DNA of 64,000 bases from an uncultured Chlamydiae bacterium. Its GTDB lineage: Bacteria; Chlamydiota; Chlamydiia; Chlamydiales; JAJFMA01. Positions 20,540-36,143 of the stretch are shown here, one piece after another. The notes below the pieces were generated by a model, which saw nothing but the letters and a program-made list of their open reading frames with translations, ran no database searches and was not told the DNA's origin. The DNA lies in NCBI GenBank assembly GCA_963713615.1, contig CAVQMM010000001.1:896001-960000 (forward strand), in the 5' to 3' direction. The stretch's first letter is position 1. Every line of letters begins with the position of its first letter. A program made the translations under genes and the position numbers.

Positions 20540-21685
20540 ATGAAACGCCGATATTTGATCGTTATTGTCACCATCCTCATCCTTTTCGGTGTTGCGTATT
20601 GCTTTGTTTTTGGGAGTTCTACCAACACCACCACGGAGGCAATACCGGCTGTTCCTGTGGTCGTCAAGACGGTACAAGCTAAACAAATTCACCTTTGGTA
20701 TGAGTTTTCAGGTCGTCTACAAGCTGTCGACAGTGTGGAAATTAGGCATGAAGTCAGTGGACGTATCACTCAAGTACGTTTTCAAGATGGCAATCGCGTA
20801 AAGGTTGGAGACATTCTCTTTGTTATTGATCCTAGACCCTACGAAGCTGCTGTAGCGCGTGCAGAAGCAACCCTAGCCACGGCCATTTCCGATGCACATT
20901 TTGCTAAAATCGAACTGGAACGCGCAGAGAATATGGTCAAAACAGAAGCCGTTGCACAGCGTATTTTTGATGAGCGTTCTAAAGATAACGATACCGCTGT
21001 GGCTGCAGTTAAGTCTGCTGAAGCTCAGCTTAAGCAGGCTAATTTGGATCTTGAACATGCCTACGTCCGATCTCCTATCGCTGGTCGTGCGGGTCGCGTA
21101 GAAATAACGCTTGGTAACTTGGTGCAGGCTGGACCTAATGCACCCTTGATGACTCGGGTCAATTCCAGCGACCCCATCTACGCGGACTTTGATGTCGACG
21201 AACAGACCTACATTCAAAGCATTCGGCACGCTGCTGACAATCAAAGTTTGGAACGGCATGTTCCAGTAGAACTCTCTGTACAGGGAGATAAGGAATACAG
21301 CTATATAGGGACGATTTACAGCTTTGACAATCGTTTAGATCCCTCCAGTGGGACAATTCGCGCGCGTGCTAAGTTCACTAATACCGATGGTGTGTTGGTC
21401 CCGGGGATGTTTGTCACCGTAAAGATCGCCAGTGGTGATAAAAAAGACGTCTTCTTGATACCACAACGTGCTATCGGTTACGATCAAAACAAAAAATATG
21501 TGTACATCGTGGACAAAGATCAAAAGGCTGAATATCGTCCCATTGAACTGGGACCCGAAGTAGAGAACCAACGCGTTGTTTTGAAGGGACTAAGCGCAGG
21601 AGACCGCGTGATTGTCAACGGCCTGCAGCATGTCAAACCTGGATCAGTCGTAACTGCCAAAGAAGAAGGCGCAAATGACGGCTAA
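20540..21685 (+). CDS. RND efflux periplasmic adaptor (MexE/OqxA-like)
   Basis: N-terminal TM; V.G.I..V.F..G..VK.GD.LF.IDPRPY lipoyl motif; GTIRARA. Confidence 0.92.
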   Translation: MKRRYLIVIVTILILFGVAYCFVFGSSTNTTTEAIPAVPVVVKTVQAKQIHLWYEFSGRLQAVDSVEIRHEVSGRITQVRFQDGNRVKVGDILFVIDPRPYEAAVARAEATLATAISDAHFAKIELERAENMVKTEAVAQRIFDERSKDNDTAVAAVKSAEAQLKQANLDLEHAYVRSPIAGRAGRVEITLGNLVQAGPNAPLMTRVNSSDPIYADFDVDEQTYIQSIRHAADNQSLERHVPVELSVQGDKEYSYIGTIYSFDNRLDPSSGTIRARAKFTNTDGVLVPGMFVTVKIASGDKKDVFLIPQRAIGYDQNKKYVYIVDKDQKAEYRPIELGPEVENQRVVLKGLSAGDRVIVNGLQHVKPGSVVTAKEEGANDG

Positions 21686-24600
21686 CATTGGCAGTAGCAA
21701 ATCCTTAAATATTTCCCGCTTCTTCATCGATCGCCCCATCTTTGCTGGTGTCATTTCCTTCATGATCTTTCTGGCAGGTCTACTTTCGGTATTTCAGCTA
21801 CCCGTGTCAGAGTATCCTCAAGTGGTCCCTCCAACAGTCGTTGTAACGGCAAGTTTTCCTGGTGCTAATCCCAAAGTCATTGCCGAAACCGTTGCCACAC
21901 CTCTTGAGGAACAGATTAACGGCACCGAAAACATGCTCTATATGACCTCACAATCCTCTAATGATGGTGTATTGACTTTAACAATCACCTTTCGACTGGG
22001 GACTGATCCTGATCTTGCCACACAGCTTGTGCAAAACCGGGTTAACCAAGCGCTACCGCGCTTGCCCGAGGTCACTAGAGAGCTCGGAGTGACAACCACC
22101 AAAAGCTCTCCTGACTTAACGATGGTCGTTCACCTCAATTCGCCAAATGATCGCTATGACATGCTTTATTTGCGCAATTATGCCCTGCTTAACGTCAAGG
22201 ACCAGTTAGCCAAAATTCAGGGCGTAGGCAATGTCGGACTATTTGGTTCGGGCGACTACGCCATGCGCATTTGGTTGAATCCACAGAAAATCGCTGAGCG
22301 CAAACTTAACGCTCAGGAAGTTGTCAATGCCGTTAGAAGGCAAAACGTGCAGGTGTCAGCAGGCGTCATCGGAGGCCCGCCATACGCAAAAGGTGTTGAG
22401 CTACAATTACCCGTCAACGTGCTGGGAAGGCTGCAAGATCCGGAGGAGTTTGGAGAAATCATCGTCAAGCAGGAGGGTGGGGTTGTTACCAAACTGAAGG
22501 ATATTGCGGGAATCGATATTGACGCCTCTGAATATGGGCTTCGTTCCTTATTAAACAATAAAGCGGCTGTTGCCATTCCCATTTTTCAGACTCCAGGCGC
22601 CAATGCCATTCAGATATCTAATCAGGTACGTCAAACAATGGCGCAACTCAAGGCTAATTTTCCCGATGGGGTAGACTATGACATTGTTTATGATCCTACC
22701 ATCTTTGTACGAGATTCCATCACAGCAGTGATTCACACGTTACTCGAGGCCTTGGCTTTGGTGGTTCTCGTCGTGATCGTCTTTTTGCAAACATGGCGCG
22801 CTTCAATCATCCCGCTTTTGGCGGTACCTGTGTCGATCGTAGGAACATTCGCGATCATGCATCTCTTTGGTTTTTCCATTAATGCCCTGTCTTTGTTTGG
22901 GCTCGTTCTTGCCATCGGTATCGTGGTGGATGATGCCATTGTCGTCGTCGAGAATGTCGAACGGCATATTGAAGATGGCATGAAACCTCGCGAAGCCACG
23001 ATACAAGCCATGAGCGAAGTGACAAGCCCTATTATCGCTATCACGCTGGTCCTATGCGCTGTATTTATCCCTGTCAGCTTCATTAGTGGGTTGACGGGAC
23101 AATTCTATCGACAATTTGCTTTAACAATAGCCTTTTCGACGGTCATTTCTGCATTTAATTCTCTGACCCTCAGCCCAGCACTCGCTTGCATCCTCTTAAA
23201 AGAACGCGATGCTCCCAAAGACAAGCTGACATCTATGATGGATTCCCTATTTGGGTTCTTTTTTAAGTGGTTCAATAGTTTTTTCCATCAGAGCTCTAAG
23301 CGCTATGGAAAGGGCGTTTTTAAAACACTGCGCCACACCAAATTCGCCTTTGGATTTTATGTGGTCTTGATGGTGGCTACCTATACACTCTTCCATCTTG
23401 TCCCCACAGGCTTTGTACCTACCCAGGACAAACAATATTTGGTGAGTTTTGCTCAGCTTCCCGAAGGAGCCACCCTAGACCGTACAGAGAAGGTGATTCG
23501 CGAAATGTCTGAGATAGCCCTAAAGGAACCAGGGGTGCAAAGTGCCGTCGCTTTTCCTGGTCTTTCCATTAATGGTTTTATCAATAATGCGAGCTCGGGC
23601 ATTGTATTTGTCACATTAAAACCTTTTGATGAGCGAAAGTCATCCGATCTTTCAGGCTTTGCTATTTCTCAAAAGCTGCAGAACAAGTTTTCGGGCATGC
23701 AAGATGCCTTCATAGCCATCTTTCCCCCTCCAGCCGTTGAGGGACTTGGCACTATAGGAGGCTTTAAATTACAACTCGAAGATCGTGCTGACTTGGGATA
23801 TGATGCCCTAGATAGCGCTGTGAAAGAGATTATTGCTAAGGCCAATACCGCTCCGGAACTTGAAGGCGCCTTCTCCAGTTTTAAAAATAATACACCTCAG
23901 CTTTTTGTTGATTTGGATCGAACCAAAGCCATGCAGCTAGGCGTCGATGTGCAGGATATCTTCGACGCCATGCAAATCTATTTGGGGTCTCTTTACATCA
24001 ACGACTTCAATAAATTTGGGCGCACCTTCCAAGTGATTGCGCAGGCCGATAAGCAATTTCGCTCTAAAGCAAGTGACATATTGAAATTACAGACACGTAA
24101 TCGCGATGGAAATATGGTGCCTCTCGGCTCTGTACTACATGTCACGGATGTCACGGGTCCTGAAACAGCCATCCGTTACAATGCTTTTCTTTCTGCAGAT
24201 ATCAACGGAGCTCCAGCTTCAGGGTACTCCACCGGCCAGGCACAGCAAGCCATCGTTAAAATCCTCAATGAAACACTCCCAAAAGGCATAAGTTATGAGT
24301 GGACAGAACTCACCTATCAACAAATCCTTGCTGGCAATACAACCATGTACGTGTTCCCACTCTGCATTCTGTTGGTGTTTTTGGTGTTGTCAGCGAAATA
24401 TGAAAGCCTATTCTTACCGCTAATTATCATTTTAATTGTTCCACTATGCCTGCTATGCGCCATTGCCGGAGTGCGAATCTCTGGTGGTGACAACAACGTC
24501 TTCACCCAAATCGGCTTCTTTGTCCTTGCAGGATTGGCCTGCAAAAATGCCATTCTAATTGTTGAGTTTGCTCGCGAATTAGAATTTCATGGCGCTAGAA

Positions 24601-24866
24601 CAGTCCCTGCAGCATTAGAGGCGGCACGCTTGCGACTCAGGCCCATCCTGATGACTTCATTTGCGTTCATCATGGGAGTGGTGCCTTTAGTCCTATCAAC
24701 CGGTGCTGGGGCAGAAATGCGGCATGCTATGGGCGTCGCAGTTTTTTCAGGGATGCTCGGTGTGACCTGCTTTGGACTATTTTTTACTCCGGTCTTCTAC
24801 GTCATCCTACGCACTTTGGAGAAAAAAATTACTAGAACGGAAAAGGTTCATCACCATGCAGAATAG
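21675..24866 (+). CDS. RND efflux permease (MexF/OqxB-like)
   Basis: FFIDRPIFA, GIVVDDAIVVVENVER, RLRPILMTS. Confidence 0.95.
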   Translation: MTANIGSSKSLNISRFFIDRPIFAGVISFMIFLAGLLSVFQLPVSEYPQVVPPTVVVTASFPGANPKVIAETVATPLEEQINGTENMLYMTSQSSNDGVLTLTITFRLGTDPDLATQLVQNRVNQALPRLPEVTRELGVTTTKSSPDLTMVVHLNSPNDRYDMLYLRNYALLNVKDQLAKIQGVGNVGLFGSGDYAMRIWLNPQKIAERKLNAQEVVNAVRRQNVQVSAGVIGGPPYAKGVELQLPVNVLGRLQDPEEFGEIIVKQEGGVVTKLKDIAGIDIDASEYGLRSLLNNKAAVAIPIFQTPGANAIQISNQVRQTMAQLKANFPDGVDYDIVYDPTIFVRDSITAVIHTLLEALALVVLVVIVFLQTWRASIIPLLAVPVSIVGTFAIMHLFGFSINALSLFGLVLAIGIVVDDAIVVVENVERHIEDGMKPREATIQAMSEVTSPIIAITLVLCAVFIPVSFISGLTGQFYRQFALTIAFSTVISAFNSLTLSPALACILLKERDAPKDKLTSMMDSLFGFFFKWFNSFFHQSSKRYGKGVFKTLRHTKFAFGFYVVLMVATYTLFHLVPTGFVPTQDKQYLVSFAQLPEGATLDRTEKVIREMSEIALKEPGVQSAVAFPGLSINGFINNASSGIVFVTLKPFDERKSSDLSGFAISQKLQNKFSGMQDAFIAIFPPPAVEGLGTIGGFKLQLEDRADLGYDALDSAVKEIIAKANTAPELEGAFSSFKNNTPQLFVDLDRTKAMQLGVDVQDIFDAMQIYLGSLYINDFNKFGRTFQVIAQADKQFRSKASDILKLQTRNRDGNMVPLGSVLHVTDVTGPETAIRYNAFLSADINGAPASGYSTGQAQQAIVKILNETLPKGISYEWTELTYQQILAGNTTMYVFPLCILLVFLVLSAKYESLFLPLIIILIVPLCLLCAIAGVRISGGDNNVFTQIGFFVLAGLACKNAILIVEFARELEFHGARTVPAALEAARLRLRPILMTSFAFIMGVVPLVLSTGAGAEMRHAMGVAVFSGMLGVTCFGLFFTPVFYVILRTLEKKITRTEKVHHHAE

Positions 24867-26262
24867 GATACCACACGCGTTCACATTCACCTTTTCGTTG
24901 GCCCTCATGCTGCTTTCTGCGTGCAACACACCATCCACTCGAGACTCCGATATCGACATTCCATGCTTGTGGAATAGCTTTAAAGACATGTCAGAAGATC
25001 TCCCGCTCGTTGTCGATGATTGCGCTGCTGTCGAACAACGTTGGTGGTCTGGTTTTGGAGACCCTATCTTAAACACTCTCATCGCCAAGGCCCTGGAGCA
25101 AAATAGAACCATCGCAATTGCAGCGACGCGTATTCAAGAAGCTCGAGCCGTCCGTGTTGCAGCCTTCTCCATTCTTTTTCCAAAGCTAAACCTAACAGCA
25201 GATGCCAACTATGGGAACCAAGGGTTTTACACGAATGGAAACACTCTAGCTTATGATGATGCAGCCATCCAAGCAACCTGGGAATTTGACCTTTTCGGTA
25301 AGAATCGAGAACGCCTAGATTCCGCAAATGCCCTTGTAGAGGCGGCTGTTATCATGCGACAAGCCGCTATAGTCTCTCTACTTGCAGAGGTTGCCAACGC
25401 GTATTTTGACCTCCATAACTATCGCACCCAAATTGTTATCACGAAAGAAAACCTGGAAAGCCAACAGAGAACTTATGAACTCACCCAGGAGCAGATGAAG
25501 GGAGCCTTAGCTAGCGATTTCGACGTTCAAAGAGCCGGAGCATTAGTATCCACTACAGAAGCACGGATCCCCTTGTTACAAATTGGCTATGATATGGCGC
25601 GCAATCGTTTGAATGTCCTCCTAGGCAGCACTCCCACCGATAACAGTGATCTTTTTGAAATAGAGGAAAAATTACGCCCCCTTGATCAGCATATCCTTAT
25701 TTCGGCACCAGCAACGGTTTTAGCGACTCGCCCCGATGTTCGAGCTGCAGAGCGACAGTTTGCTGCAAGTATCTCCGAAACGAATGCTGCCATCAGAGAA
25801 CTCTTCCCAAACATCAGCTTACTGGCCTTCTTTGGGGCGCAAGGAATGACCCTATTTAACACTGCCCCCACCTGGAACCTTGTGGCTAATCTGGTGCAAC
25901 CCTTGCTAAATTTTGGAAACATCGAAGCCGATATCATCAACGCCGACGCACGCGAATGGAGAGCTTATCTTGAATACCAAGAGACCACTCTGAATGCATT
26001 AGAAGAAATGGAAAATGCTCTAACCAGCTACCTTCGCGAGATCGTGCGTAACGGGTCATTACGAAAAGCCACAGAACAAAACCTCAGGGCTGTGGACTTG
26101 GCTCAGCAACAATATGTTAATGGCTACACAGGTCTTCTCGATGTGTTGGTCGTAAAACGCAATGCCTTAGACATCGAGTCCAACCTAGCAGAGTCTGATA
26201 TTAAGCTTAGAAAGAGCTTGGTGGATATCTATACTGCCGCCGGTGGAGGCTGGGCCTACTAA
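24856..26262 (+). CDS. Efflux outer membrane lipoprotein (NodT/OprN-like)
   Basis: Lipobox LLSAC; WEFDLFG, RPDVRAAE, terminal GGGW. Confidence 0.9.
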   Translation: MQNRIPHAFTFTFSLALMLLSACNTPSTRDSDIDIPCLWNSFKDMSEDLPLVVDDCAAVEQRWWSGFGDPILNTLIAKALEQNRTIAIAATRIQEARAVRVAAFSILFPKLNLTADANYGNQGFYTNGNTLAYDDAAIQATWEFDLFGKNRERLDSANALVEAAVIMRQAAIVSLLAEVANAYFDLHNYRTQIVITKENLESQQRTYELTQEQMKGALASDFDVQRAGALVSTTEARIPLLQIGYDMARNRLNVLLGSTPTDNSDLFEIEEKLRPLDQHILISAPATVLATRPDVRAAERQFAASISETNAAIRELFPNISLLAFFGAQGMTLFNTAPTWNLVANLVQPLLNFGNIEADIINADAREWRAYLEYQETTLNALEEMENALTSYLREIVRNGSLRKATEQNLRAVDLAQQQYVNGYTGLLDVLVVKRNALDIESNLAESDIKLRKSLVDIYTAAGGGWAY

Positions 26263-26345: not shown

Positions 26346-26460
26346 GATGGACTAAATGGACATAAGTGGACCTAGTGGACAAAGAGTTAAGAGTAACAAA
26401 TCCAAACTGTGGTTTTGTCCATATTGTCCAGTCAGTCCATGATGTCCATTAAGTCCATCG
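26346..26460. repeat. Family E palindrome (about 9-bp periodic ggac / gtcc arms)
   Basis: ggactaaatggacataagtggacctagtggac...gtccatattgtccagtcagtccatgatgtccattaagtcc; related sequence at 0.6, 42.9/46.0, 50.3/50.7 and 62.5 kb. Confidence 0.65.
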
Positions 26461-26596: not shown

Positions 26597-27433
26597 ATGG
26601 GTAACGAAGGGGCATATGATACGATTGCTGAAATCGCCGGCAATCAAGAAGCCTACAATTCATGCGATCTGAAAGAGCTTTCGCTAGAACAAGCCATTCG
26701 CCTCATGCAATTGCACAAAATGCATAAGGCTCAAAAAGAGATGGTTTCGATGAGCCAAGACCTCAAGGACCGTCATCGCAAGGTCCATGAGCTTCATAAG
26801 CTGCTGCAACTCATTCAGAAAAATACCATTCAAGAAGATGGCCCAGACCGCGGTAAGCTCAAGCTCACGCACCCTAACCTCAAAAATCCACATGTTGAGC
26901 TAGCTGCAGACCTCAGCCGAGCCCTTAAGGGTCAAACCAAGCAAGTCTTGGCAAAGGATGGTTCCAAACAATTGCGCATTGACCTCACGGATGATGCCAA
27001 CCAATCCATCCGCGATCTACTCGTTAAGGCCAAGGTAAACGGCTTGGAAGTCGAACTCAAAGACGTCTACGAGGGTGAAGAGGTCCAAAAGCTTCAAGAT
27101 GCCATCAAAGCTATGACCGGTATCCAAAGTGATGATGCCTGGAACAAAGTTAAAGATATCCTCGAACTGCGCATACGCCTGCAACAAGCCAAAGAAGTTT
27201 ATGGCATCGAATTCAAATGGCCCGCAGACGAATATCCTCGCGAAGATCGCGAAGCTCTCACAACGGCCATTGACACGACGTGCAAAGACTTAAATCTGCA
27301 AAATGACATGCAGATGCATGATATCAACCGCGCCTATCAGGAAAGACTGGAAATCTTGCAGATGGCACGTTCCATCATCAAGACTTTACATGACGACAAG
27401 ATCCACAAATCGCGCTCATCAGGTTCACGTTAA
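26597..27433 (+). CDS. Putative T3SS tip/filament protein (Bsp22/EspA-like), paralog 1
   Basis: N- and C-terminal coiled coils, DMQMHDINR.YQER.EILQM tail; strong RBS; paralog at 31634. Confidence 0.55.
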   Translation: MGNEGAYDTIAEIAGNQEAYNSCDLKELSLEQAIRLMQLHKMHKAQKEMVSMSQDLKDRHRKVHELHKLLQLIQKNTIQEDGPDRGKLKLTHPNLKNPHVELAADLSRALKGQTKQVLAKDGSKQLRIDLTDDANQSIRDLLVKAKVNGLEVELKDVYEGEEVQKLQDAIKAMTGIQSDDAWNKVKDILELRIRLQQAKEVYGIEFKWPADEYPREDREALTTAIDTTCKDLNLQNDMQMHDINRAYQERLEILQMARSIIKTLHDDKIHKSRSSGSR

Positions 27434-27439
27434 GGATAA

Positions 27440-28891
27440 GTGATGTCGGGAATAGAAATTGATAATGATGTTGGCCGCCTAGATCACGGGTACATTCCTG
27501 CTGATTGGGGCATTCAGGACTACCATACTGGGATTCCTTCGAAGGAAGAACAGGAAAAAAAATCCGCAAGCTTGCCGGCTAGCTGGTATGCCGATTCTAT
27601 CGCTACCCATCCCAAGAACATTGTGCATGGTGCGGCAGAATCCACTAACTCCATCGTGCCTTCAAAACAGGTGCTGTTTGGTTGGTCGAGCAGCGATACG
27701 CAATCGAGTGCTGAAGGCACTGAGAAAACAGAAGAATCCTCCAGCTCCTGGTGGGGATCTATGATTGGTGGGCTTAAAAACCTGATGGGACTATCTTCTG
27801 CTGAAGAATCTCAGGCAGCCGTTCAAGTTGACGAAAGCCAAGCTGTATCTTCATCGTGGTATGAGTACCTGAATCCTTCAGGGGTCATGACGGGTGTCTC
27901 AGATATGGTCAAAGGGCTATGGGGAACCATTACCTTCGCTGAAACAGCCTTCAGCGACCCTAATGTCAAAAGCGTAGAAATCCCCGTTACCAATCCAGAC
28001 GGCACTGCAAATCCCTTTGGTGGACGTCGCATCACGCGTGACGACTACCGTGAGCTCCTACGCTTCCGAGATGACACCCAAGAGCTGATGGATAGACTCA
28101 CCGCCGCTGAAAAAGATGGAAACTTGGAAGCTCTAATCGTTGCTTTGACCAAGGCATTGGCAACCGATAAAGAAGACGAATTCGACTACCAAAAGAAGAA
28201 GCTTGCAGAGAGCCATAAGGAACGCGATGCAGACCTCAAGCTGCGCGATAAGGCCTCTGTTCAACTGTTGAGCCGAATCAAAGACAACCGTTGGTGGGAC
28301 TGGTTCTACGAATCCACAACACAAACATCGCTAGCTTTTGGTGGCTTAGCACTAGGGGTAGCGTCGGGAGTATGGGGTTGGGCTCTTCCCATGATCGCCT
28401 TCTCGGGCGTTGGCTTGGTGAACTCATACCTTAACAGTGGCATAGAAAAGTCTGCTGCTAGCGTTACTGCAAAACCCACCAGCTGGATCTTTGGTAGTGA
28501 CTACCAAGAAACAGTCTCTAGGCATACCGAAAAGTGGAAGACTGCCCACAAGGTATTTTGGTGGGCTATGACCCTTGCGGCGCCTGGTATGATTGCTGCG
28601 AGTAATATCGGAGCCGTCGGCGAGGGCTTGGTAAAAGCTCTCTTTGGGGGCTTCGGCATCATGCAAAACTTAGGCCAAAGCCGGAAAGTCTACCTGCACG
28701 ACCAAACACGTAAGTTACAAGCTGAAATAGACTACCGTCACGATCGTCTGAGAGAGGCTGAAAAGTCCATTAGCTCGGGAATTTCGGGGCTGACAAGCAC
28801 TTATAAAAGTTATTCCTCCACTTGGAAGGAAGGGCAACGCATGCTCAAACAGACAGCGCGCCTCGTTAAAAGTTTTTTCATGAAAAATTAA
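27440..28891 (+). CDS. Putative major hydrophobic T3SS translocator (SctE/CopB-like), paralog 1
   Basis: Ser-rich disordered N-terminus, coiled coil, Gly/Ala-rich hydrophobic segments, C-terminal coiled coil. Confidence 0.6.
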   Translation: MMSGIEIDNDVGRLDHGYIPADWGIQDYHTGIPSKEEQEKKSASLPASWYADSIATHPKNIVHGAAESTNSIVPSKQVLFGWSSSDTQSSAEGTEKTEESSSSWWGSMIGGLKNLMGLSSAEESQAAVQVDESQAVSSSWYEYLNPSGVMTGVSDMVKGLWGTITFAETAFSDPNVKSVEIPVTNPDGTANPFGGRRITRDDYRELLRFRDDTQELMDRLTAAEKDGNLEALIVALTKALATDKEDEFDYQKKKLAESHKERDADLKLRDKASVQLLSRIKDNRWWDWFYESTTQTSLAFGGLALGVASGVWGWALPMIAFSGVGLVNSYLNSGIEKSAASVTAKPTSWIFGSDYQETVSRHTEKWKTAHKVFWWAMTLAAPGMIAASNIGAVGEGLVKALFGGFGIMQNLGQSRKVYLHDQTRKLQAEIDYRHDRLREAEKSISSGISGLTSTYKSYSSTWKEGQRMLKQTARLVKSFFMKN

Positions 28892-28916
28892 ATGGGTACA
28901 TACTAGGAGCATCCCT

Positions 28917-29534
28917 ATGGAAATTACAGACTATAATGATCAAACCTCCGCTACTTATTACAATGATGAATCGGACATCAAGGCACATGGCTATGCATCT
29001 GATGCGATCATGTCCCAGCTCGATGCCATGAACCTCGAAAACATGGATCCCCTGTCATTGGTTTCTTGGCTGGGCAAGCTGTGCCTAACGACAAACCATG
29101 ATTCCAACAAGATCGCCACTCGTGAAGCGGAGTTCAAAAAGAAGACGGCCATCCAATTGCGCTTTAGCATTAAGGAATGTGCCAATACTGTCGGTTGGTT
29201 GTTTTGCTCAGCTGTTAGCGTAGCCGTTAATGCTGGAGGCCTTGTTTGGTTCGGTACTACTGTGATGAAAGATGGTAGCGCTGCTGCTGGTCAGTCCGCC
29301 ATTACAGCGACGCAGCAAATGTCCACCATGTTGCAGCCTGGAACAGCTTATTGCCAACAGCGTGATGAAGCTGCTAAGACATCCATGTCGTCAGATCAAC
29401 AAGTGGTTAATAGCGACCGCGACAACCAAAAGCAAAATCTGAGTGCTCGCGAGCAAACGATGGAGACAATGAAGGGCCAATTGCAGCAACTTCTCGATAA
29501 AGCGGCTCAAGTCATTAACGCCATCTGGGGTTAA
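28917..29534 (+). CDS. Putative minor hydrophobic T3SS translocator (SctB/CopD-like), paralog 1
   Basis: One hydrophobic segment, Gln-rich C-terminal coiled coil ending in an amphipathic helix. Confidence 0.55.
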   Translation: MEITDYNDQTSATYYNDESDIKAHGYASDAIMSQLDAMNLENMDPLSLVSWLGKLCLTTNHDSNKIATREAEFKKKTAIQLRFSIKECANTVGWLFCSAVSVAVNAGGLVWFGTTVMKDGSAAAGQSAITATQQMSTMLQPGTAYCQQRDEAAKTSMSSDQQVVNSDRDNQKQNLSAREQTMETMKGQLQQLLDKAAQVINAIWG

Positions 29535-29696: not shown

Positions 29697-30602
29697 TTAT
29701 TGAACCTCAACCGCTTTCGCTATGCGTTTCTTTCGGTCTTCCACACGCCACTCTACGGTTCCTACGCTCCAATAGTGAGTGGATAGTTCATGTGCCGTCG
29801 TCTTCAATTCCTTTGCAGCGCGCTCCATGATCCCTGGAATGGTCTCAGCTCTTGCCATGAATTCGCATAGGCGTCTAATGCCATCATCTGGTGAGTATTG
29901 GTTTTTCCATTGAAAGTCCACGAGGCTGACTCCTTGGCCATCGCTACGCAATAGAGTATTGGTAAACCCAATATCCCAGTAACCCGTCTTCAGAATAAAT
30001 ACTTCTAGTTCACCCACGATAGCATCTATTTTGGTGCGCAGTTCTAGGTTCCCATTATCTGCCTGATAGACCAATTTATTCCAAATATCATCAGGAGCAC
30101 CATAACCATGTGCGACAGCTTCCACCTTCTCCTCGATAAGTAGGTACATCTGGCCCTGGTATTTATCAATGATGCCCTCTAGCAGGATCTTCGCCGAACG
30201 TGGAATGTGAATGTACTGCAGATGATTGTCCACCACTGCCCGTCTCGCTAATTCAGCCGTTGAAATGCGCTCGTTTGCTTGGCCTTCATCCACTATTTTT
30301 AAAATCAAGTTTGGGTAGTCCGCATGCACAAAGGCCGCAGTGTATTTCCCCTTATATAATGCGGAAATATTTGGTCCTGGATTCTCTCTGTCAAAATGTG
30401 AGTAGTCTTTCTTTACCGTATCATAGATAGCCGCTAAGCCAGCCTTTGAAAACCATAGATCTAAAGACTTGGATGACGAACGAACCACATCGCCACAGTA
30501 GTCATCGCTGCAATACACTGTCTCAAAAATGGTTTGGAAGTCTGGGGTAGACGCAGTCGCTTCGAACGGGCTAAAGAATAGGGTTAATAACAAAAGAAAC
30601 AT
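29697..30602 (-). CDS. Signal-peptide protein with kinase-like motifs
   Basis: MFLLLLTLFFSPFEATA signal; ILKI, WDIGFTN, SLVDF spacing recalls a kinase fold. Confidence 0.6.
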   Translation of the reverse strand: MFLLLLTLFFSPFEATASTPDFQTIFETVYCSDDYCGDVVRSSSKSLDLWFSKAGLAAIYDTVKKDYSHFDRENPGPNISALYKGKYTAAFVHADYPNLILKIVDEGQANERISTAELARRAVVDNHLQYIHIPRSAKILLEGIIDKYQGQMYLLIEEKVEAVAHGYGAPDDIWNKLVYQADNGNLELRTKIDAIVGELEVFILKTGYWDIGFTNTLLRSDGQGVSLVDFQWKNQYSPDDGIRRLCEFMARAETIPGIMERAAKELKTTAHELSTHYWSVGTVEWRVEDRKKRIAKAVEVQ

Positions 30603-30695: not shown

Positions 30696-31457
30696 GACGT
30701 AATTGCAGAAGTCCGATTTCCCGAAGTCAATTTCCTGAAAATCGTATGCTGATGAAAAGAGAGCCATTCCCTTTCCAGGCCCGAAGGGTCGATATTGCAA
30801 CAGGCCAGGGCATCGCCCCATAGGCCTCAACCTAACAGGTCTTTTGAGCTTATATCTCAATGACTTAGGACTTCACAATCGTATCTCGGCGCGCAGCGCT
30901 TTGGAGTGCGGTCGCTTGCGACCGCTTTTCGTTCCTTGGGACGGCAATGCTAAACGGCATTGTATGGATTCGTCGAAGGCTGCATGTACTAACTATTTTA
31001 CCCTTAGGGAATTATAGTAATGCCGTTGCACACGACCGTCGCAAGGAACCCAAAGCGGTCGCAAGCGACCGCACTCCAAAGCGCTGCGCGCCGAGATACG
31101 ATTGTTAGGCTTAGGTTGAGGCCTATGGGGCATCGCCCTGGTATATTCCAGGAAGGGATTTCGCAGTCTGAAAGACTGCCATAAAGCGCTTGCATAAATA
31201 GCGTGTGAATACAGACGTCTTGTGGCAGTCTTTCAGACTGCGAAATCCCCCTTGGCATATACCAGGGCATCGCCGGGCGATGCCCCGGCCTGTTGCAATA
31301 TCGACCCTTCGGGCCTAGAAAGGGATAAAAGCCTGTCTCTCCAGACTAGATAGTGCCATGCCATTTGAGCTCTCCAGAATCGCCTTCTCGCATAAAAAGG
31401 TAACCTTTTTTTCTGAGAATCGATTCTCAAGGGCTCAAATAATTTTGCAATTACCTC
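30696..31457. mobile_element. Composite non-autonomous element: family A containing B, containing MITE C, containing D
   Basis: TIRs ga(c/g)gtaattgca / tgcaattacctc; internal long IR ggcccgaagggtcgatattgcaacaggcc. Confidence 0.8.
30819..31127. mobile_element. MITE C (IS4/IS231-like), 309 bp
   Basis: 17-bp TIR cataggcctcaacctaa; 11-bp TSD gggcatcgccc at 30808-30818 and 31128-31138. Confidence 0.8.
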
Positions 31458-31633: not shown

Positions 31634-32458
31634 ATGGCAGAGCCACAATATAAAGATACAATAGCTGATATAGCCGGTAATCCGGAACTTTATCGTGCTA
31701 CAGATTTCAGAAAGCTGTCATTGGAACAAGTCATTCGTCTCATGCAGTTGCATTACATGAAGACGGCCGAAGGCAAGATGAAGGATCTGGCACAAACGCT
31801 TAAAAAAGGGCACAGAGACGTACAAGAACTCCATAAACTCCAAGCCCTCATCAATGCATTGACTAATCAAGTAGAAGGCGAGACGCGTGGCACACTAGAC
31901 CTTACCCACACAAGCCTGAATGACAAGACCCATAAATATTTCGACCTAATACGTAAGATCAGGAGTGGGATCAAGACGACGGCTAGCGATAAAGATGGCA
32001 AGCATACCATCCTCGACCTAACAGATCCTAAAAACGCAGCCATCCGTGAAGAGCTAGCAAAGCTCCTAAATATCGAAGTCAAGGACTCCTATAATAGCGA
32101 GGAATGGCAGGGGCTCATTGAGAGTCTCGAAAAAGCAACCAATATCGATGACAAAACAATTCTAAAACAGGTCACAGATATTCACGAACTACGCGAGCGT
32201 CTCAAGGAAGCTAAAGACAAGTTTGGGATCGATTTTAAGCTTAAGGATGATGGCAAATATGACAGAGACGAACGCACTGCTCTGATGACTGCGGCCGAGA
32301 ATAGAGTCAAGGACTACAACTTAGACAATGACATGAACATGCATGATCTACAGCGCTTCTATCAGGAGCGTTTAGAAATATTACAGATGGCCCGTGGCCT
32401 ATTAAAAACACTACATGACGATAAAGTCCATAAGGCTCGATCAGCAGGATCGAAGTAA
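31634..32458 (+). CDS. Putative T3SS tip/filament protein, paralog 2
   Basis: Shares DTIA.IAGN, LSLEQ.IRLMQLH and YQERLEILQMAR....TLHDDK.HK.RS with 26597. Confidence 0.55.
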   Translation: MAEPQYKDTIADIAGNPELYRATDFRKLSLEQVIRLMQLHYMKTAEGKMKDLAQTLKKGHRDVQELHKLQALINALTNQVEGETRGTLDLTHTSLNDKTHKYFDLIRKIRSGIKTTASDKDGKHTILDLTDPKNAAIREELAKLLNIEVKDSYNSEEWQGLIESLEKATNIDDKTILKQVTDIHELRERLKEAKDKFGIDFKLKDDGKYDRDERTALMTAAENRVKDYNLDNDMNMHDLQRFYQERLEILQMARGLLKTLHDDKVHKARSAGSK

Positions 32459-32472
32459 CGGAGCATATTATA

Positions 32473-33960
32473 ATGAGCGTATCAAGAATCGAAGGCAATA
32501 CCCGGGCACAACAGTCCTGGCATGTAGACAAGACGGATGAGCTTCCCATCGGCAACCTGCCCAAGGGTGAAATAGAAAAAGTTCGTCCTGATATGACAAT
32601 GTATTTCACCGATACGATTGTCACCCATCCGGATACTACCCCGACCCAGGACAGCAATGACCTCGGGACCAGCAAATCCAAACAACACAATGTTGAGGAT
32701 TTTAACGCACAGTATTCTACGACGCAGCAGCCTACTTCCCCGCAGACAGGATGGAGTGCACGCGACAGCTACTCTAGCGCTAGGTTAGAGGATGCCACAT
32801 CTGGAGCGGAAAGGACCTCCACAGGCTTATTTGGCTGGATTGGTAATACCCTCAGCAATGCTGTTGAAACCGTCACGGATGCATTCAGTTCCGCAGCGAC
32901 AGCGGCTATTGAGGCAGCCCCTTCGTTCCATCCTGTAACAAACTTCGTCCAAAGTGGGATGATGGATCGGGTTGTTAATTTCGTCACAGGGCTATGGCAC
33001 ACAGAAAACTTGGCGGAGCGAGCTTTCAACAATCCCAATGTGGAAACAGTCGAAATCCCAACCATCAATCCCGATGGGACACGCAACCCCTTCGGCGGCC
33101 TCCGCATGACTCGCGATGACTACAAGGAGCTCCTGCGGTTTCACTCGGATACCAATGCCCTGTTAGACTACTTGGTGGAGCAAGGCGATGGCGGCAACGT
33201 AGAATTTCTGATGATGACCTTGATCAAAGCTCTGCAGGAAGATAAACGAGAAGACTTCGACTTCCTGCGCCAGAAGCTTATCCACACGAACAAGGAAAGA
33301 GATGTCTTCTCTAAACAGCGCACCGAAGAGTCTATGAAGCGGATCGAGCATATCAAGAATAACCGTTGGTATGAATGGTTCAATACAGCAGCAACCAACA
33401 CGGTGCTAGGCTTTAGCGGGGTCACCCTTGGTGCTGCCACAGGCCATTGGGGTTATGCTGCAGGCGCTCTTATGGTAACTGCCGGCTTAGGACTAGCAAA
33501 CTTGTATGCTGAACACTGGACCGAAAGAACGCTCGCCAGCGGTAGTGCCACAGCTTCCAATGCTATTTTCGGTAGCGACAACTATGATGAGTTGCATAAG
33601 ACGCACACCGATAGATGGAAAATGGCTCACTATGCAGGTATGGCTGTTGCGGCCCTATACAGTGGTTTGTATAACCGCGGTTCAATGGCTGAAGTAGGCC
33701 TGAAAATATTTTTGGGCGTCAGTAATATTAGCCAAACTATCAGTCAACTACGTCAACTGTACATCAGAGATAAGAGTGATCGAACCCAAGCGCAAATTAC
33801 ATTCTTAACCGATAACATACGTGAAAAAGAACGCGCTATTACTTCAACGATTAAAGATTTAGCAACAGCCTACTCACGTTATGCAGATGGCTGGAAAGAG
33901 GGCATGGCTAAGCTCAAAGCAGCCATGGAAGCCTCAAGACAATTTATGAGAAATAATTAA
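32473..33960 (+). CDS. Putative major translocator, paralog 2
   Basis: Shares NPDGT.NPFGG.R.TRDDY.ELLRF and IK.NRW..WF plus hydrophobic block with 27440. Confidence 0.6.
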   Translation: MSVSRIEGNTRAQQSWHVDKTDELPIGNLPKGEIEKVRPDMTMYFTDTIVTHPDTTPTQDSNDLGTSKSKQHNVEDFNAQYSTTQQPTSPQTGWSARDSYSSARLEDATSGAERTSTGLFGWIGNTLSNAVETVTDAFSSAATAAIEAAPSFHPVTNFVQSGMMDRVVNFVTGLWHTENLAERAFNNPNVETVEIPTINPDGTRNPFGGLRMTRDDYKELLRFHSDTNALLDYLVEQGDGGNVEFLMMTLIKALQEDKREDFDFLRQKLIHTNKERDVFSKQRTEESMKRIEHIKNNRWYEWFNTAATNTVLGFSGVTLGAATGHWGYAAGALMVTAGLGLANLYAEHWTERTLASGSATASNAIFGSDNYDELHKTHTDRWKMAHYAGMAVAALYSGLYNRGSMAEVGLKIFLGVSNISQTISQLRQLYIRDKSDRTQAQITFLTDNIREKERAITSTIKDLATAYSRYADGWKEGMAKLKAAMEASRQFMRNN

Positions 33961-33989
33961 ATTAAGACAGAAATACTAGGAGAAACAAA

Positions 33990-34649
33990 ATGGAAGCATT
34001 ATCCACATTGGGCAATAAGCTTGAGAATCTTCTCAGCGAAGCTCCAAATAAAAGCCCCTTGAACCTAATGACGTTCATTTTTAACATCAGCTTGCTAAAT
34101 AATCATGAAGGCAACAAGATTCGTCGACAAGACAACGAGAATAAGAAAATTCTTGGAATCGAACTTCGTGGTAAAATTAAGGACGCCTCCAACTGGTTCC
34201 ACTGGAGTAAGCCCCTGTTTGGTGACTTGCCGCTGATTGGTGGCTCTTCATTGCCCTATTGCCCGACAGTAAAAGGTCTAGAAGGCGGGTTTCAGATTGG
34301 CGGCGCAGTAATCAGCGGAGGCTTTCTGGGCTATGTGGCCAAACACAAGCTAACTAACGTGTTAACAGGCGGAAAAGCCGGAATAGCCCATGGGCTGGAC
34401 GAGGTCCACAAGCTCGTCCAAATGGGTCAGACAGCCCAGTCTGTCACGCAGCCAGTCGCTACCTGTTTCAAGGAGAGTGCAGAGACTGCTAAGGGCGATA
34501 TGCAGATGGAGAAACAGACTCTTGATAGCGATCGCGATAACGAGCGTCAAACGCTAAGTGCTCAGGAACAGGCCGGACAAGAAATTCGTCAGAAGATGCA
34601 AAGCATCGAAGACAAAGATGGTCAAGTCTTTGGCGAATTTGCCCGCTAA
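33990..34649 (+). CDS. Putative minor translocator, paralog 2
   Basis: Shares I.LR..IK and SDRDN..Q.LSA.EQ with 28917. Confidence 0.55.
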   Translation: MEALSTLGNKLENLLSEAPNKSPLNLMTFIFNISLLNNHEGNKIRRQDNENKKILGIELRGKIKDASNWFHWSKPLFGDLPLIGGSSLPYCPTVKGLEGGFQIGGAVISGGFLGYVAKHKLTNVLTGGKAGIAHGLDEVHKLVQMGQTAQSVTQPVATCFKESAETAKGDMQMEKQTLDSDRDNERQTLSAQEQAGQEIRQKMQSIEDKDGQVFGEFAR

Positions 34650-34659
34650 AACTCTACGT

Positions 34660-34692
34660 TGGTCATGGATGAGAACCCCTCATCCATGATCA
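34660..34692. terminator. Hairpin between convergent genes
   Basis: tcatggatgag-aaccc-ctcatccatga. Confidence 0.6.
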
Positions 34693-35835
34693 GTTTCTAT
34701 TTAAATAATTTCGGATTCCAACCACAAAGATCTTCTCGGATAGCTGATAATCGACCTCACCAGGGTAGATAACCTGTAGCTGATCCAGACCTAACTCCTC
34801 TACAGCCACCTGCATGGACTTGGTGAGCTTGGGCGCATCGGAATACTTGAACTCAAAAGCCTTTAGCTTACCATTCTGATGAATCAGCAAGTCAACCTCA
34901 GCTTCTCCATAAGTCGACCAGAAGTAACACTCCTCGGACCTGGCTCCTGCATGTCTGATGACCTCCTCCAACGCATAACCTTCCCAGGAGGCTCCTAGCT
35001 TAGGATGAATGACTAATTCTCCTCGTTCCTTTATTCCCAGAAGGGAATGCAGAATACCGCTATCGCGAAAATAGACTTTGGGAGCCTTGACTTGTCGTTT
35101 TTTACCGTTCTGATGCCAGGGCTGAAGCTGTCGCATCATGAAAGTTCCGGTCAATAGATCCAGATAACCACGCATCGTCACATCGGAAGCCCCAAAGGAG
35201 CGCCCCAGCTCTGAGGCATTGAACGTATTTCCATGGTAGTGTGCAAGCATACTCCAAAAACGCCGCAGCGCTACTGGAGGAATTTGAAGGCCAAGGTTGG
35301 GAATATCCTGCTCCAAGAAAGTGCGAATATAGAATTCTCTCCAGTCGAAGCTATCGCTGTCGGTCTCTGCCAAATAGGATCGTGGAAACCCACCCCTAAC
35401 CCACAGACGATCTAAATCACCAACTTCCCCAAAGGAAAACGGTGTGATTTCCAGGTAGGCTATTCTCCCTGCCAGGGTTTCGGACGACTGTCGGATCAGA
35501 TCTCGTGAAGCACTTCCCAGGATCAAGTACTGTTTGTTTTTTTCGTCTTGGTCAACAAGGACTCTCAAGGTCGTAAACAAATCCGGTATGCGCTGGATCT
35601 CATCAACAACAATAAGTCCAGACAATGACGTCAAAGCCAGCATGGGATTGACTAAACGCTCAGCATCGATAGGAGCCTCAAGATCAAAGTAATTGCTTCT
35701 GGGAAATTCAGCCTGTTCTTGACAATACATGCGCGCCAAAGTCGTCTTTCCACATTGTCTAGGACCAAGCATTGCCACTACGGGGTGCGTCCGAAAGTAA
35801 CGTCTGATTAGATCGATAAAATGTTTACGCTGCAT
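34690..35835 (-). CDS. AAA+ ATPase with DUF4143-type C-terminal domain
   Basis: GPRQCGKTT, DEIQR, LGSAS, ETLAGR, GGFP, PKVYFRDSG, EVDL...FEFK. Confidence 0.88.
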   Translation of the reverse strand: MQRKHFIDLIRRYFRTHPVVAMLGPRQCGKTTLARMYCQEQAEFPRSNYFDLEAPIDAERLVNPMLALTSLSGLIVVDEIQRIPDLFTTLRVLVDQDEKNKQYLILGSASRDLIRQSSETLAGRIAYLEITPFSFGEVGDLDRLWVRGGFPRSYLAETDSDSFDWREFYIRTFLEQDIPNLGLQIPPVALRRFWSMLAHYHGNTFNASELGRSFGASDVTMRGYLDLLTGTFMMRQLQPWHQNGKKRQVKAPKVYFRDSGILHSLLGIKERGELVIHPKLGASWEGYALEEVIRHAGARSEECYFWSTYGEAEVDLLIHQNGKLKAFEFKYSDAPKLTKSMQVAVEELGLDQLQVIYPGEVDYQLSEKIFVVGIRNYLNRN

Positions 35836-35910: not shown

Positions 35911-36143
35911 ACGGTTCGCTTTACTTTTTAGGAGTAACACGGATGAACACGGATCTAGGAGGATTTAGGAGGATCGGATGGCATATACGGTTCGTCAATC
36001 TAAAACAGTAAAATTGGTTTTTTAAGATGGAATGAACACAATTCATGTGGCTCTAATAAGCGAACCGTATATGCCATCCTATCCTCCTAAATCCTCCTAG
36101 ATCCGTGTGCATCCGTGTTAATCCTAAAAGCGACACGAACCGT
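35911..36143. repeat. Family F palindromic element
   Basis: acacggat.cacacggatctaggaggatttaggaggat arm and its inverse; three copies in window. Confidence 0.85.

Follow-up and report, generated by a model that had tools for sequence, protein, structure and literature searches.

A Bsp22-related candidate for the tip protein of the second chlamydial translocon, encoded in duplicated cassettes

Bsp22, the needle-tip protein of Bordetella, polymerises (PMC7498569, PMC12607632) and, as is also reported of EspA, tolerates insertions in the equivalent middle loop (PMC12607632); tandem bsp22 copies with differing middles are described for Achromobacter and B. ansorpii (bioRxiv 2025.09.16.676505). What is the counterpart in Chlamydiae? 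A sequence-only reading of the DNA considered here called its identity unsettled, and the literature bears this out. CT584 is listed as the chlamydial SctA in a 2023 review (PMC9993115), while its crystal structure, which has no central coiled coil, argues against a tip role (PMC3260263); the protein behaves as a chaperone (PMC3576375), and in a passage on CT584 the chlamydial tip is said not to align with other tips (PMC3459982). A tip label for another gene, of the CT863 family, is already in print, from gene order: CPn1022 was grouped as a putative hydrophilic needle-tip protein by gene order and hydrophobicity (PMC4760673), and C. trachomatis CTL0238 bears the label 'LcrV' in PMC4752267, taken over from an older review. 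In Shigella, a reporter was secreted by the type III route under the direction of the N-terminus of the C. pneumoniae CT863 homologue (cited in PMC3931295). The operon of the CT863 homologue is reported to be expressed in reticulate bodies, in passages that use neither the word 'tip' nor 'LcrV' (bioRxiv 2024.04.25.591156). CT584/Cpn0803 has only the proposed role in common with the CT863 family, and is set beside it here by description, not by sequence.

The window, i.e., the whole stretch of 64,000 nucleotides from an uncultured Chlamydiae bacterium that was analysed, holds two three-gene cassettes in tandem, of 278/483/205 aa at 26597-29534 and of 274/495/219 aa at 31634-34649:

26597..27433, + strand: tip-protein candidate copy 1, 278 aa, hydrophilic; CT863/CPn1022 family, Bsp22-related
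27440..28891, + strand: CopB2/SctE-like major translocator gene copy 1, 483 aa, by profile links
28917..29534, + strand: CopD2/SctB-like minor translocator gene copy 1, 205 aa, by profile links; one hydrophobic stretch
31634..32458, + strand: tip-protein candidate copy 2, 274 aa, paralogue of copy 1
32473..33960, + strand: second copy of the major translocator-like gene, 495 aa, 37.6% identity with the first, by profile links
33990..34649, + strand: second copy of the minor translocator-like gene, 219 aa, 29.2% identity with the first, by profile links
34658..34694, + strand: terminator-like hairpin ending cassette 2, a pattern match only

Identity between the cassettes is 49, 38 and 29% for genes 1, 2 and 3 (48.9% over 272 columns for the tip-gene pair), and in the 99%-complete genome no tip-candidate copies beyond these two were found. 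Terminator-like sites number 13 against 8.5 +/- 3.1 in shuffles; promoter-like sites are not enriched (13 against 12.0 +/- 3.3). The tip candidate is hydrophilic and without a transmembrane stretch, and stretches of moderate hydrophobicity occur in genes 2 and 3. Like CT863/CPn1022, the candidate is the first gene of an operon with CopB2- and CopD2-like genes. As to genes 2 and 3 themselves, copy 1 of the major translocator-like gene (483 aa) gave no Pfam match of its own and copy 2 a weak one to SseC (E 0.07); for the minor translocator-like gene, too, Pfam gave none. In profile comparison, the own-family profile of gene 2 gives 97.7% against environmental orthologues and 85.3% against betaproteobacterial SctE, and those orthologues give 94.7% against CopB2 and 97.0% against SctE; the own-family profile of gene 3 gives 97.5% against its environmental orthologues, which in turn give 95.8% against CopD2 and 87.2% against SctB. 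Direct profile matches of genes 2 and 3 to CopB2 and CopD2 are only 10% and 1.8%, and the link of the two genes to CopB2 and CopD2, as judged from profiles, is by way of the environmental orthologues. The position of the locus is conserved, between transporter-ruvB genes and methyltransferase-mgtE-like genes. An efflux-type three-gene operon (window 20540-26262), RND by sequence appearance, lies between the cassette and the transporter-ruvB genes; in G064, of the same genus, and in many other chlamydiae the latter directly adjoin the cassette.

The sequence-only reading held that the paralogues conserve mainly their terminal helices, and quoted two motifs (LSLEQ.IRLMQLH...V.ELHKL and NL.NDM.MHD..R.), both of which are present in both paralogues. 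Identity between the two is 35/64 (55%) for residues 27-90, 30/95 (32%) for 91-185, 21/43 (49%) for 186-228 and 36/50 (72%) for 229-278, and for the same four segments across 11 long relatives the values are 0.65, 0.44, 0.58 and 0.78; the N- and C-terminal helices are indeed the best conserved, at 55% and 72%, against 32% in 91-185. The parts of the protein are as follows:

26684..26821, + strand: N-terminal long helix, residues 30-75, from the model; aligns with the Bsp22 N-terminal helix
26876..27142, + strand: insert, about residues 94-182, a nested second copy of the outer helix-hairpin-helix module
27239..27427, + strand: C-terminal long helix, residues 215-277, where conservation is highest; pairs in the alignment with the C-terminal helix of Bsp22

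The AlphaFold model of the 278-aa protein (pLDDT 92.6, from a 123-row alignment) has these long helices at 30-75 and 215-277 with two alpha/beta modules between them. Short orthologues, of 173-176 aa, do without about 90-95 middle residues of the window protein, and the model of a 173-aa one (pLDDT 83.8) has the same helices and a single alpha/beta module. The insert compared with the outer module gives hhalign 96.5% and a score of 51, against 10.2 +/- 2.5 (maximum 21.4) in 40 column shuffles: it repeats, in nested form, the outer module of the family itself. What had been described simply as a variable middle is accordingly right in that 91-185 has the lowest identity, and has to be amended in that about 90 of its residues are an insert that repeats the outer module. 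Middle inserts of many sizes occur across the CT863/CPn1022 family. Two other chlamydial members, P0144 (271 aa) and P0180 (373 aa), show apparently separate duplications of the outer module.

There are few close relatives (263-278 aa; 11 of the 13 matches, counting the query), and informative matches were not found in Pfam, NCBIfam, PDB sequences or plasmids. One 173-176-aa orthologue retrieved 114 proteins, several of them named Parachlamydia or Chlamydiales hypothetical proteins; these names, with CdsD-specific Pfam domains in the same genome, agree with the earlier placing of the locus in a chlamydia. Profile A3 was made by aligning 54 of the 114 and holds close homologues only. A search of 1.84 billion representatives gave 467 matches to E 0.001, and profile A5 consists of 101 of the best 150 of these, of length near 170-205 aa and taken as chlamydial; none of the 101 ranks in the top 45 on a Bsp22-type profile. 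The window protein scores 111 bits with A3 and 123 with A5, the C. pneumoniae protein 44 and 78, and by sequence the tip candidate belongs to the CT863/CTL0238/CPn1022 family, tags that were assigned from operon position following PMC4760673 and bioRxiv 2024.04.25.591156. Among 300 chlamydial genomes (one limited genome left out), A5 matches 133 and gives no match in 167. In family f4, which holds C. pneumoniae, the count is 29/29, in f6 31/32 and in f3 18/18; elsewhere it is sparse, with 0/26 in f9, 6/47 in f7 and 8/62 in f10. The f4 match, in one case identical to a C. pneumoniae protein, is the C-terminal ~140 residues of an ORF of ~480 aa, and it directly precedes a SycD gene in the six loci read; in the Chlamydiaceae form about 340 residues are added at the N-terminus, as a long low-complexity extension. 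The window thus resembles CT863/CTL0238/CPn1022 in the homologous C-terminal domain and in its place as first gene of an operon like lcrH_2-copB2-copD2, and differs from it in that the long N-terminal extension is missing, the outer module has a nested duplicate, the whole cassette is doubled in tandem and there is no SycD gene. In a 33-row tree the long forms group (93/94 support) and the duplication order is not resolved. In G064, the tip gene is short (200 aa) in one of the two cassettes and long (271 aa) in the other (L198, G064:C39); in the window's own genome (G000) and G101, unlike G064, both tip genes are long.

Was the sequence-only reading right to name Bsp22? A5 aligns end to end with a 29-sequence Bsp22 family over 151 columns (hhalign 98.2%, E 4.4e-14, hhalign E-values being pairwise). 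A3 and A4 gave 96.8% and 96.4% against the same family, and A2, of mostly long forms, 49%, with 16.7% against a smaller Bsp22 seed. Control profiles of LcrV, SctO and SctB, of three sequences each, stood at 0.1-1.7% and the reversed Bsp22 family at <=1.0%; scores for the reversed Bsp22 alignment and for 40 seven-column block shuffles of it were <=28 against the real 69 and 89. The resemblance is thus borne out at the level of profiles, at 96.8-98.2%. A5 was also run blind through 401 genomes of one betaproteobacterial order. Matches at E 0.05 came from 27 of them and four were strong (E 1.5e-18 to 2.8e-10), the best match outside those four genomes having E 2.4e-3. In three of the four, the matches lie in tandem, with the SctW gatekeeper gene on one side and the SycD-translocator genes on the other, i.e., in the Bsp22 slot, of T3SS loci with SctW, a Btc22-like gene, SycD, SctE and SctB, and the same gene order is described for Bordetella bsp22 (PMC7498569); one Btc22-like gene was scanned and gave 69.6 bits, below the cut-off of 100. 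A6, a profile of the blind-search matches, was run on 251 genomes from a single family, where 24 match (22 of these at E < 1e-14), and finds the Bordetella protein named 'needle tip complex Bsp22' at E 4e-37. It also finds a gene in G688: among the 401 genomes, A5 had overlooked one Bsp22-like gene or more. A5 scores the named Bordetella Bsp22 directly at 30.3 bits, in both terminal helices. Direct scores are otherwise weak, with 3.8 bits for the window protein and -5.4 for CPn1022 on the Bsp22-family HMM, and 23.6% for A5 against a single Bsp22 sequence. Therefore the homology to Bsp22, established here by profile comparison, is one of families and reaches the window protein through its short orthologues (111-123 bits). 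The fourth strong genome, G350, has a lone Bsp22-like domain (L155:8362-9339) with a signal-peptide-like, Ala/Pro-rich N-terminus; it lies among housekeeping-like genes, and recognisable T3SS genes were not found in the 18 kb around.

Bsp22 of Bordetella and its Achromobacter/Chitinimonas relatives thus have, in common with the window family, profile homology over both terminal helices with a variable middle, the same slot before chaperone and translocators, and a frequency of tandem copies. The differences are that in the window the whole cassette is doubled and not just the one gene, that aligned lead sequences are 11-18% identical, that the window protein has a doubled outer module, and that the chlamydial setting is, to judge from the taxon, obligate intracellular. 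For the Btc22 chaperone, no NF051897 match at E <= 1 was found in the window's genome, though a small divergent chaperone could escape.

The same reading had named EspA as well, and this part stands less firmly. Against EspA/SseB (9 sequences, some of them fragments) A5 gave 58%, and A3, A4 and A2 0.2%, 0.3% and 0.1%. The A5 family gave no match with EPEC EspA alone, PF03433 (EspA) was found neither in the genome nor among the 101 family members, and in five T3SS-bearing genomes A5 found nothing significant, with a weak match at E 0.55 on an SseB/EspA gene. The predicted topology of the short orthologue is that of EspA/SseB (PF03433), and in Foldseek the top match of the 173-aa model is the EspA filament subunit 7khw (E 0.043, prob 0.99, TM 0.49). 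VIA-align of the short model with 7khw gives Z 9.7 and rmsd 4.0 over 159/174 residues, the longest alignment among 50 rows, with a Z tied with generic coiled coils. The likeness to EspA/SseB is then weak by profile, and a full-length structural match by a score that is not significant: Foldseek gave no match at E 0.001 for the long or the short model, and wide VIA-align searches brought up nothing beyond generic coiled coils, flagellins and fragments of IpaB, EspA being absent from the list. The structural evidence, being from predicted models, is consistent but not decisive. Atlas neighbours are EspA-containing (0.94-0.95), LcrV-containing (0.93, the family being in 12% of members) and unnamed proteobacterial clusters, at 0.92-0.96 overall and with recognition scores under the tool's threshold; DUF720 and Effector_1 clusters are also listed as neighbours.

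Taken together, the Bsp22-family profile match and a gene position ahead of the major and minor translocators sustain the tip proposal of the sequence-only reading, and the protein is probably the SctA, or tip, subunit of the second translocon of Chlamydiae. What form would such a tip take? That Bsp22-like subunits stack as a needle extension we judge slightly better than an even prospect, by analogy. Rather unlikely, though the most serious of the competing explanations, is that the subunit forms a single LcrV/IpaD-like ring with no extension, the nested module being the distal domain of IpaD/SipD. The homology and gene-order evidence for SctA would apply to it equally. LcrV/IpaD/SipD caps share with the window protein a coiled coil of middle and C-terminal helix and the operon slot; SipD and IpaD rank first in Foldseek for the 278-aa model (E 0.023-0.028), in which EspA is not listed, and the LcrV-containing Atlas cluster is of the same tendency. 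The TM to SipD/IpaD is, however, about 0.2, the Pfam LcrV match was not found, and the profile comparison with LcrV proposed earlier gave <=1.7%, on an alignment of just three LcrV sequences and no IpaD profile. Also against a ring, Bsp22, the closest characterised homologue, polymerises, and the model of the short orthologues is without an N-terminal self-chaperoning domain. The cellular data from C. trachomatis lean the other way. CTL0238 is present at 70 and 55 copies per cell (in the order RB/EB), like CopB and CopD (PMC4752267), and elementary bodies have a 28-nm needle with a compact tip (PMC4682100); the low counts and short needle would fit a cap better than a long filament, and the ~340 extra N-terminal residues of the Chlamydiaceae form would need room in a filament. 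Set against this, shed filaments would escape the counts, and elementary bodies express the other operon.

A further point concerns the chaperone. The SycD/LcrH gene is missing from both window cassettes. On a SycD profile built from the same chlamydial loci that it was scored on, the gene directly follows the tip gene in 29 of 46 loci and is absent there in 17, namely those of the window's genome, G101, G064, G216 and 13 others, the first having three members of its family with it in this group. Could the candidate work in the cytoplasm, as a partner that keeps the translocators until their export in place of the missing SycD? The long form with the extra module is found in lineages without SycD, which would suit such a substitution. 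It seems very improbable nevertheless: the gene coexists with SycD in the 29 loci, short forms without SycD also exist (G152, G195 and the G064 copy), nine strong SycD-like genes lie outside the cassettes in the window's genome, and the predicted fold is not TPR. That genome has, besides, an Scc2-type translocon operon, CdsD, a needle-slot gene, an ATPase and core T3SS genes. In its main translocon operon (L217, C1:3374255-3380621) two SycD genes flank a 620-636-aa gene of no known family, and 692- and 345-aa translocator-like genes follow. The 620-aa gene gives 0.2% against the A5 or Bsp22 profile; therefore, by that profile test, the tip of the Scc2 operon would come from outside the CT863/CPn1022 family. 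Weak matches of the tip-family profile to the 80-aa needle-slot gene (C1:3383668-3383910, DUF5407; E 0.065) and to a 395-aa gene upstream of the Scc2 operon (C1:3371637-3372824; E 0.006) were seen, and Bsp22-like proteins weakly match Pfam T3SS_needle_F (E 4e-5 to 0.025). It is possible that a polymer helix at the C-terminus is common to tip, needle-slot and related families.

Descent from a tip protein need not mean that the present product acts in the conduit, and a secreted effector or a secretion regulator working outside it has been considered. The long low-complexity N-terminal extension in Chlamydiaceae would be in keeping with that, as would the many chlamydial families with few matches or none, and the G350 domain outside a T3SS locus makes domain re-use possible. 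In the long loci inspected, however, the gene is directly ahead of the translocators or their chaperone, in the window's genus it was duplicated jointly with the translocator genes, and the best conserved parts are the two helices by which a polymer would pack. Such a change of function is improbable here, less so than a chaperone-like role.

The preferred reading, a stacking tip subunit, draws on homology, gene order, the predicted monomer fold and the duplication, and its mechanism is modelled on that of Bsp22 and EspA (PMC12607632). The tip protein would be exported through the type III needle and stack on the needle end, its N- and C-terminal helices pairing as a coiled coil and packing, as those of the EspA filament do, along the channel. 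At the distal end more subunits would add helically to give the extension, with the middle alpha/beta module, doubled in the window protein, facing outward, and the extension would dock the co-encoded CopB2/CopD2-like pore proteins into the host membrane, probably that of the inclusion. More speculatively, and tentatively, Chlamydiae as a whole may carry a true Bsp22-class filament subunit, reticulate bodies may lengthen their short needles by a polymer of the CT863 family, so as to reach the inclusion membrane and load it by way of the CopB2/CopD2 pore, and the lineage of the window may build two filaments, alternative or mixed, whose outer layer is doubled.

The search of open-access main texts turned up no link between Bsp22 and a protein of Chlamydiae, and a prior mention elsewhere is possible; by term search the string 'chlamyd' is absent from two Bsp22-focused reports (bioRxiv 2025.09.16.676505 and PMC12607632). 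Neither were the minimal environmental form, the nested outer-module duplication and the chaperone-less tandem cassette found in that literature. The Bsp22 homology gives CT863 positive, sequence-based support as a tip and predicts self-polymerisation. If true, a Bsp22-class filament subunit would replace CT584 as tip candidate for the CopB2/CopD2 operon, and it would be the first sequence-alignable tip protein common to chlamydial and proteobacterial T3SS, with a bearing on T3SS evolution. As the environmental orthologues of 175 aa are the bare domain, without the long disordered N-terminus, a test in vitro is possible without handling a pathogen.

Two minor features of the locus may be recorded. 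Between the cassettes, on the opposite strand, lies a 301-aa ORF (window 29697-30602, - strand) with a signal-peptide-like start, for which no Pfam match was found. Nested long inverted repeats, REP/BIME-like, are intergenic at 30768-31325, 35926-36129 and 26346-26459, with arms of 87 nt (90% complementary), 51 nt (96%) and 69 nt (96%), and one of these clusters is between the cassettes.
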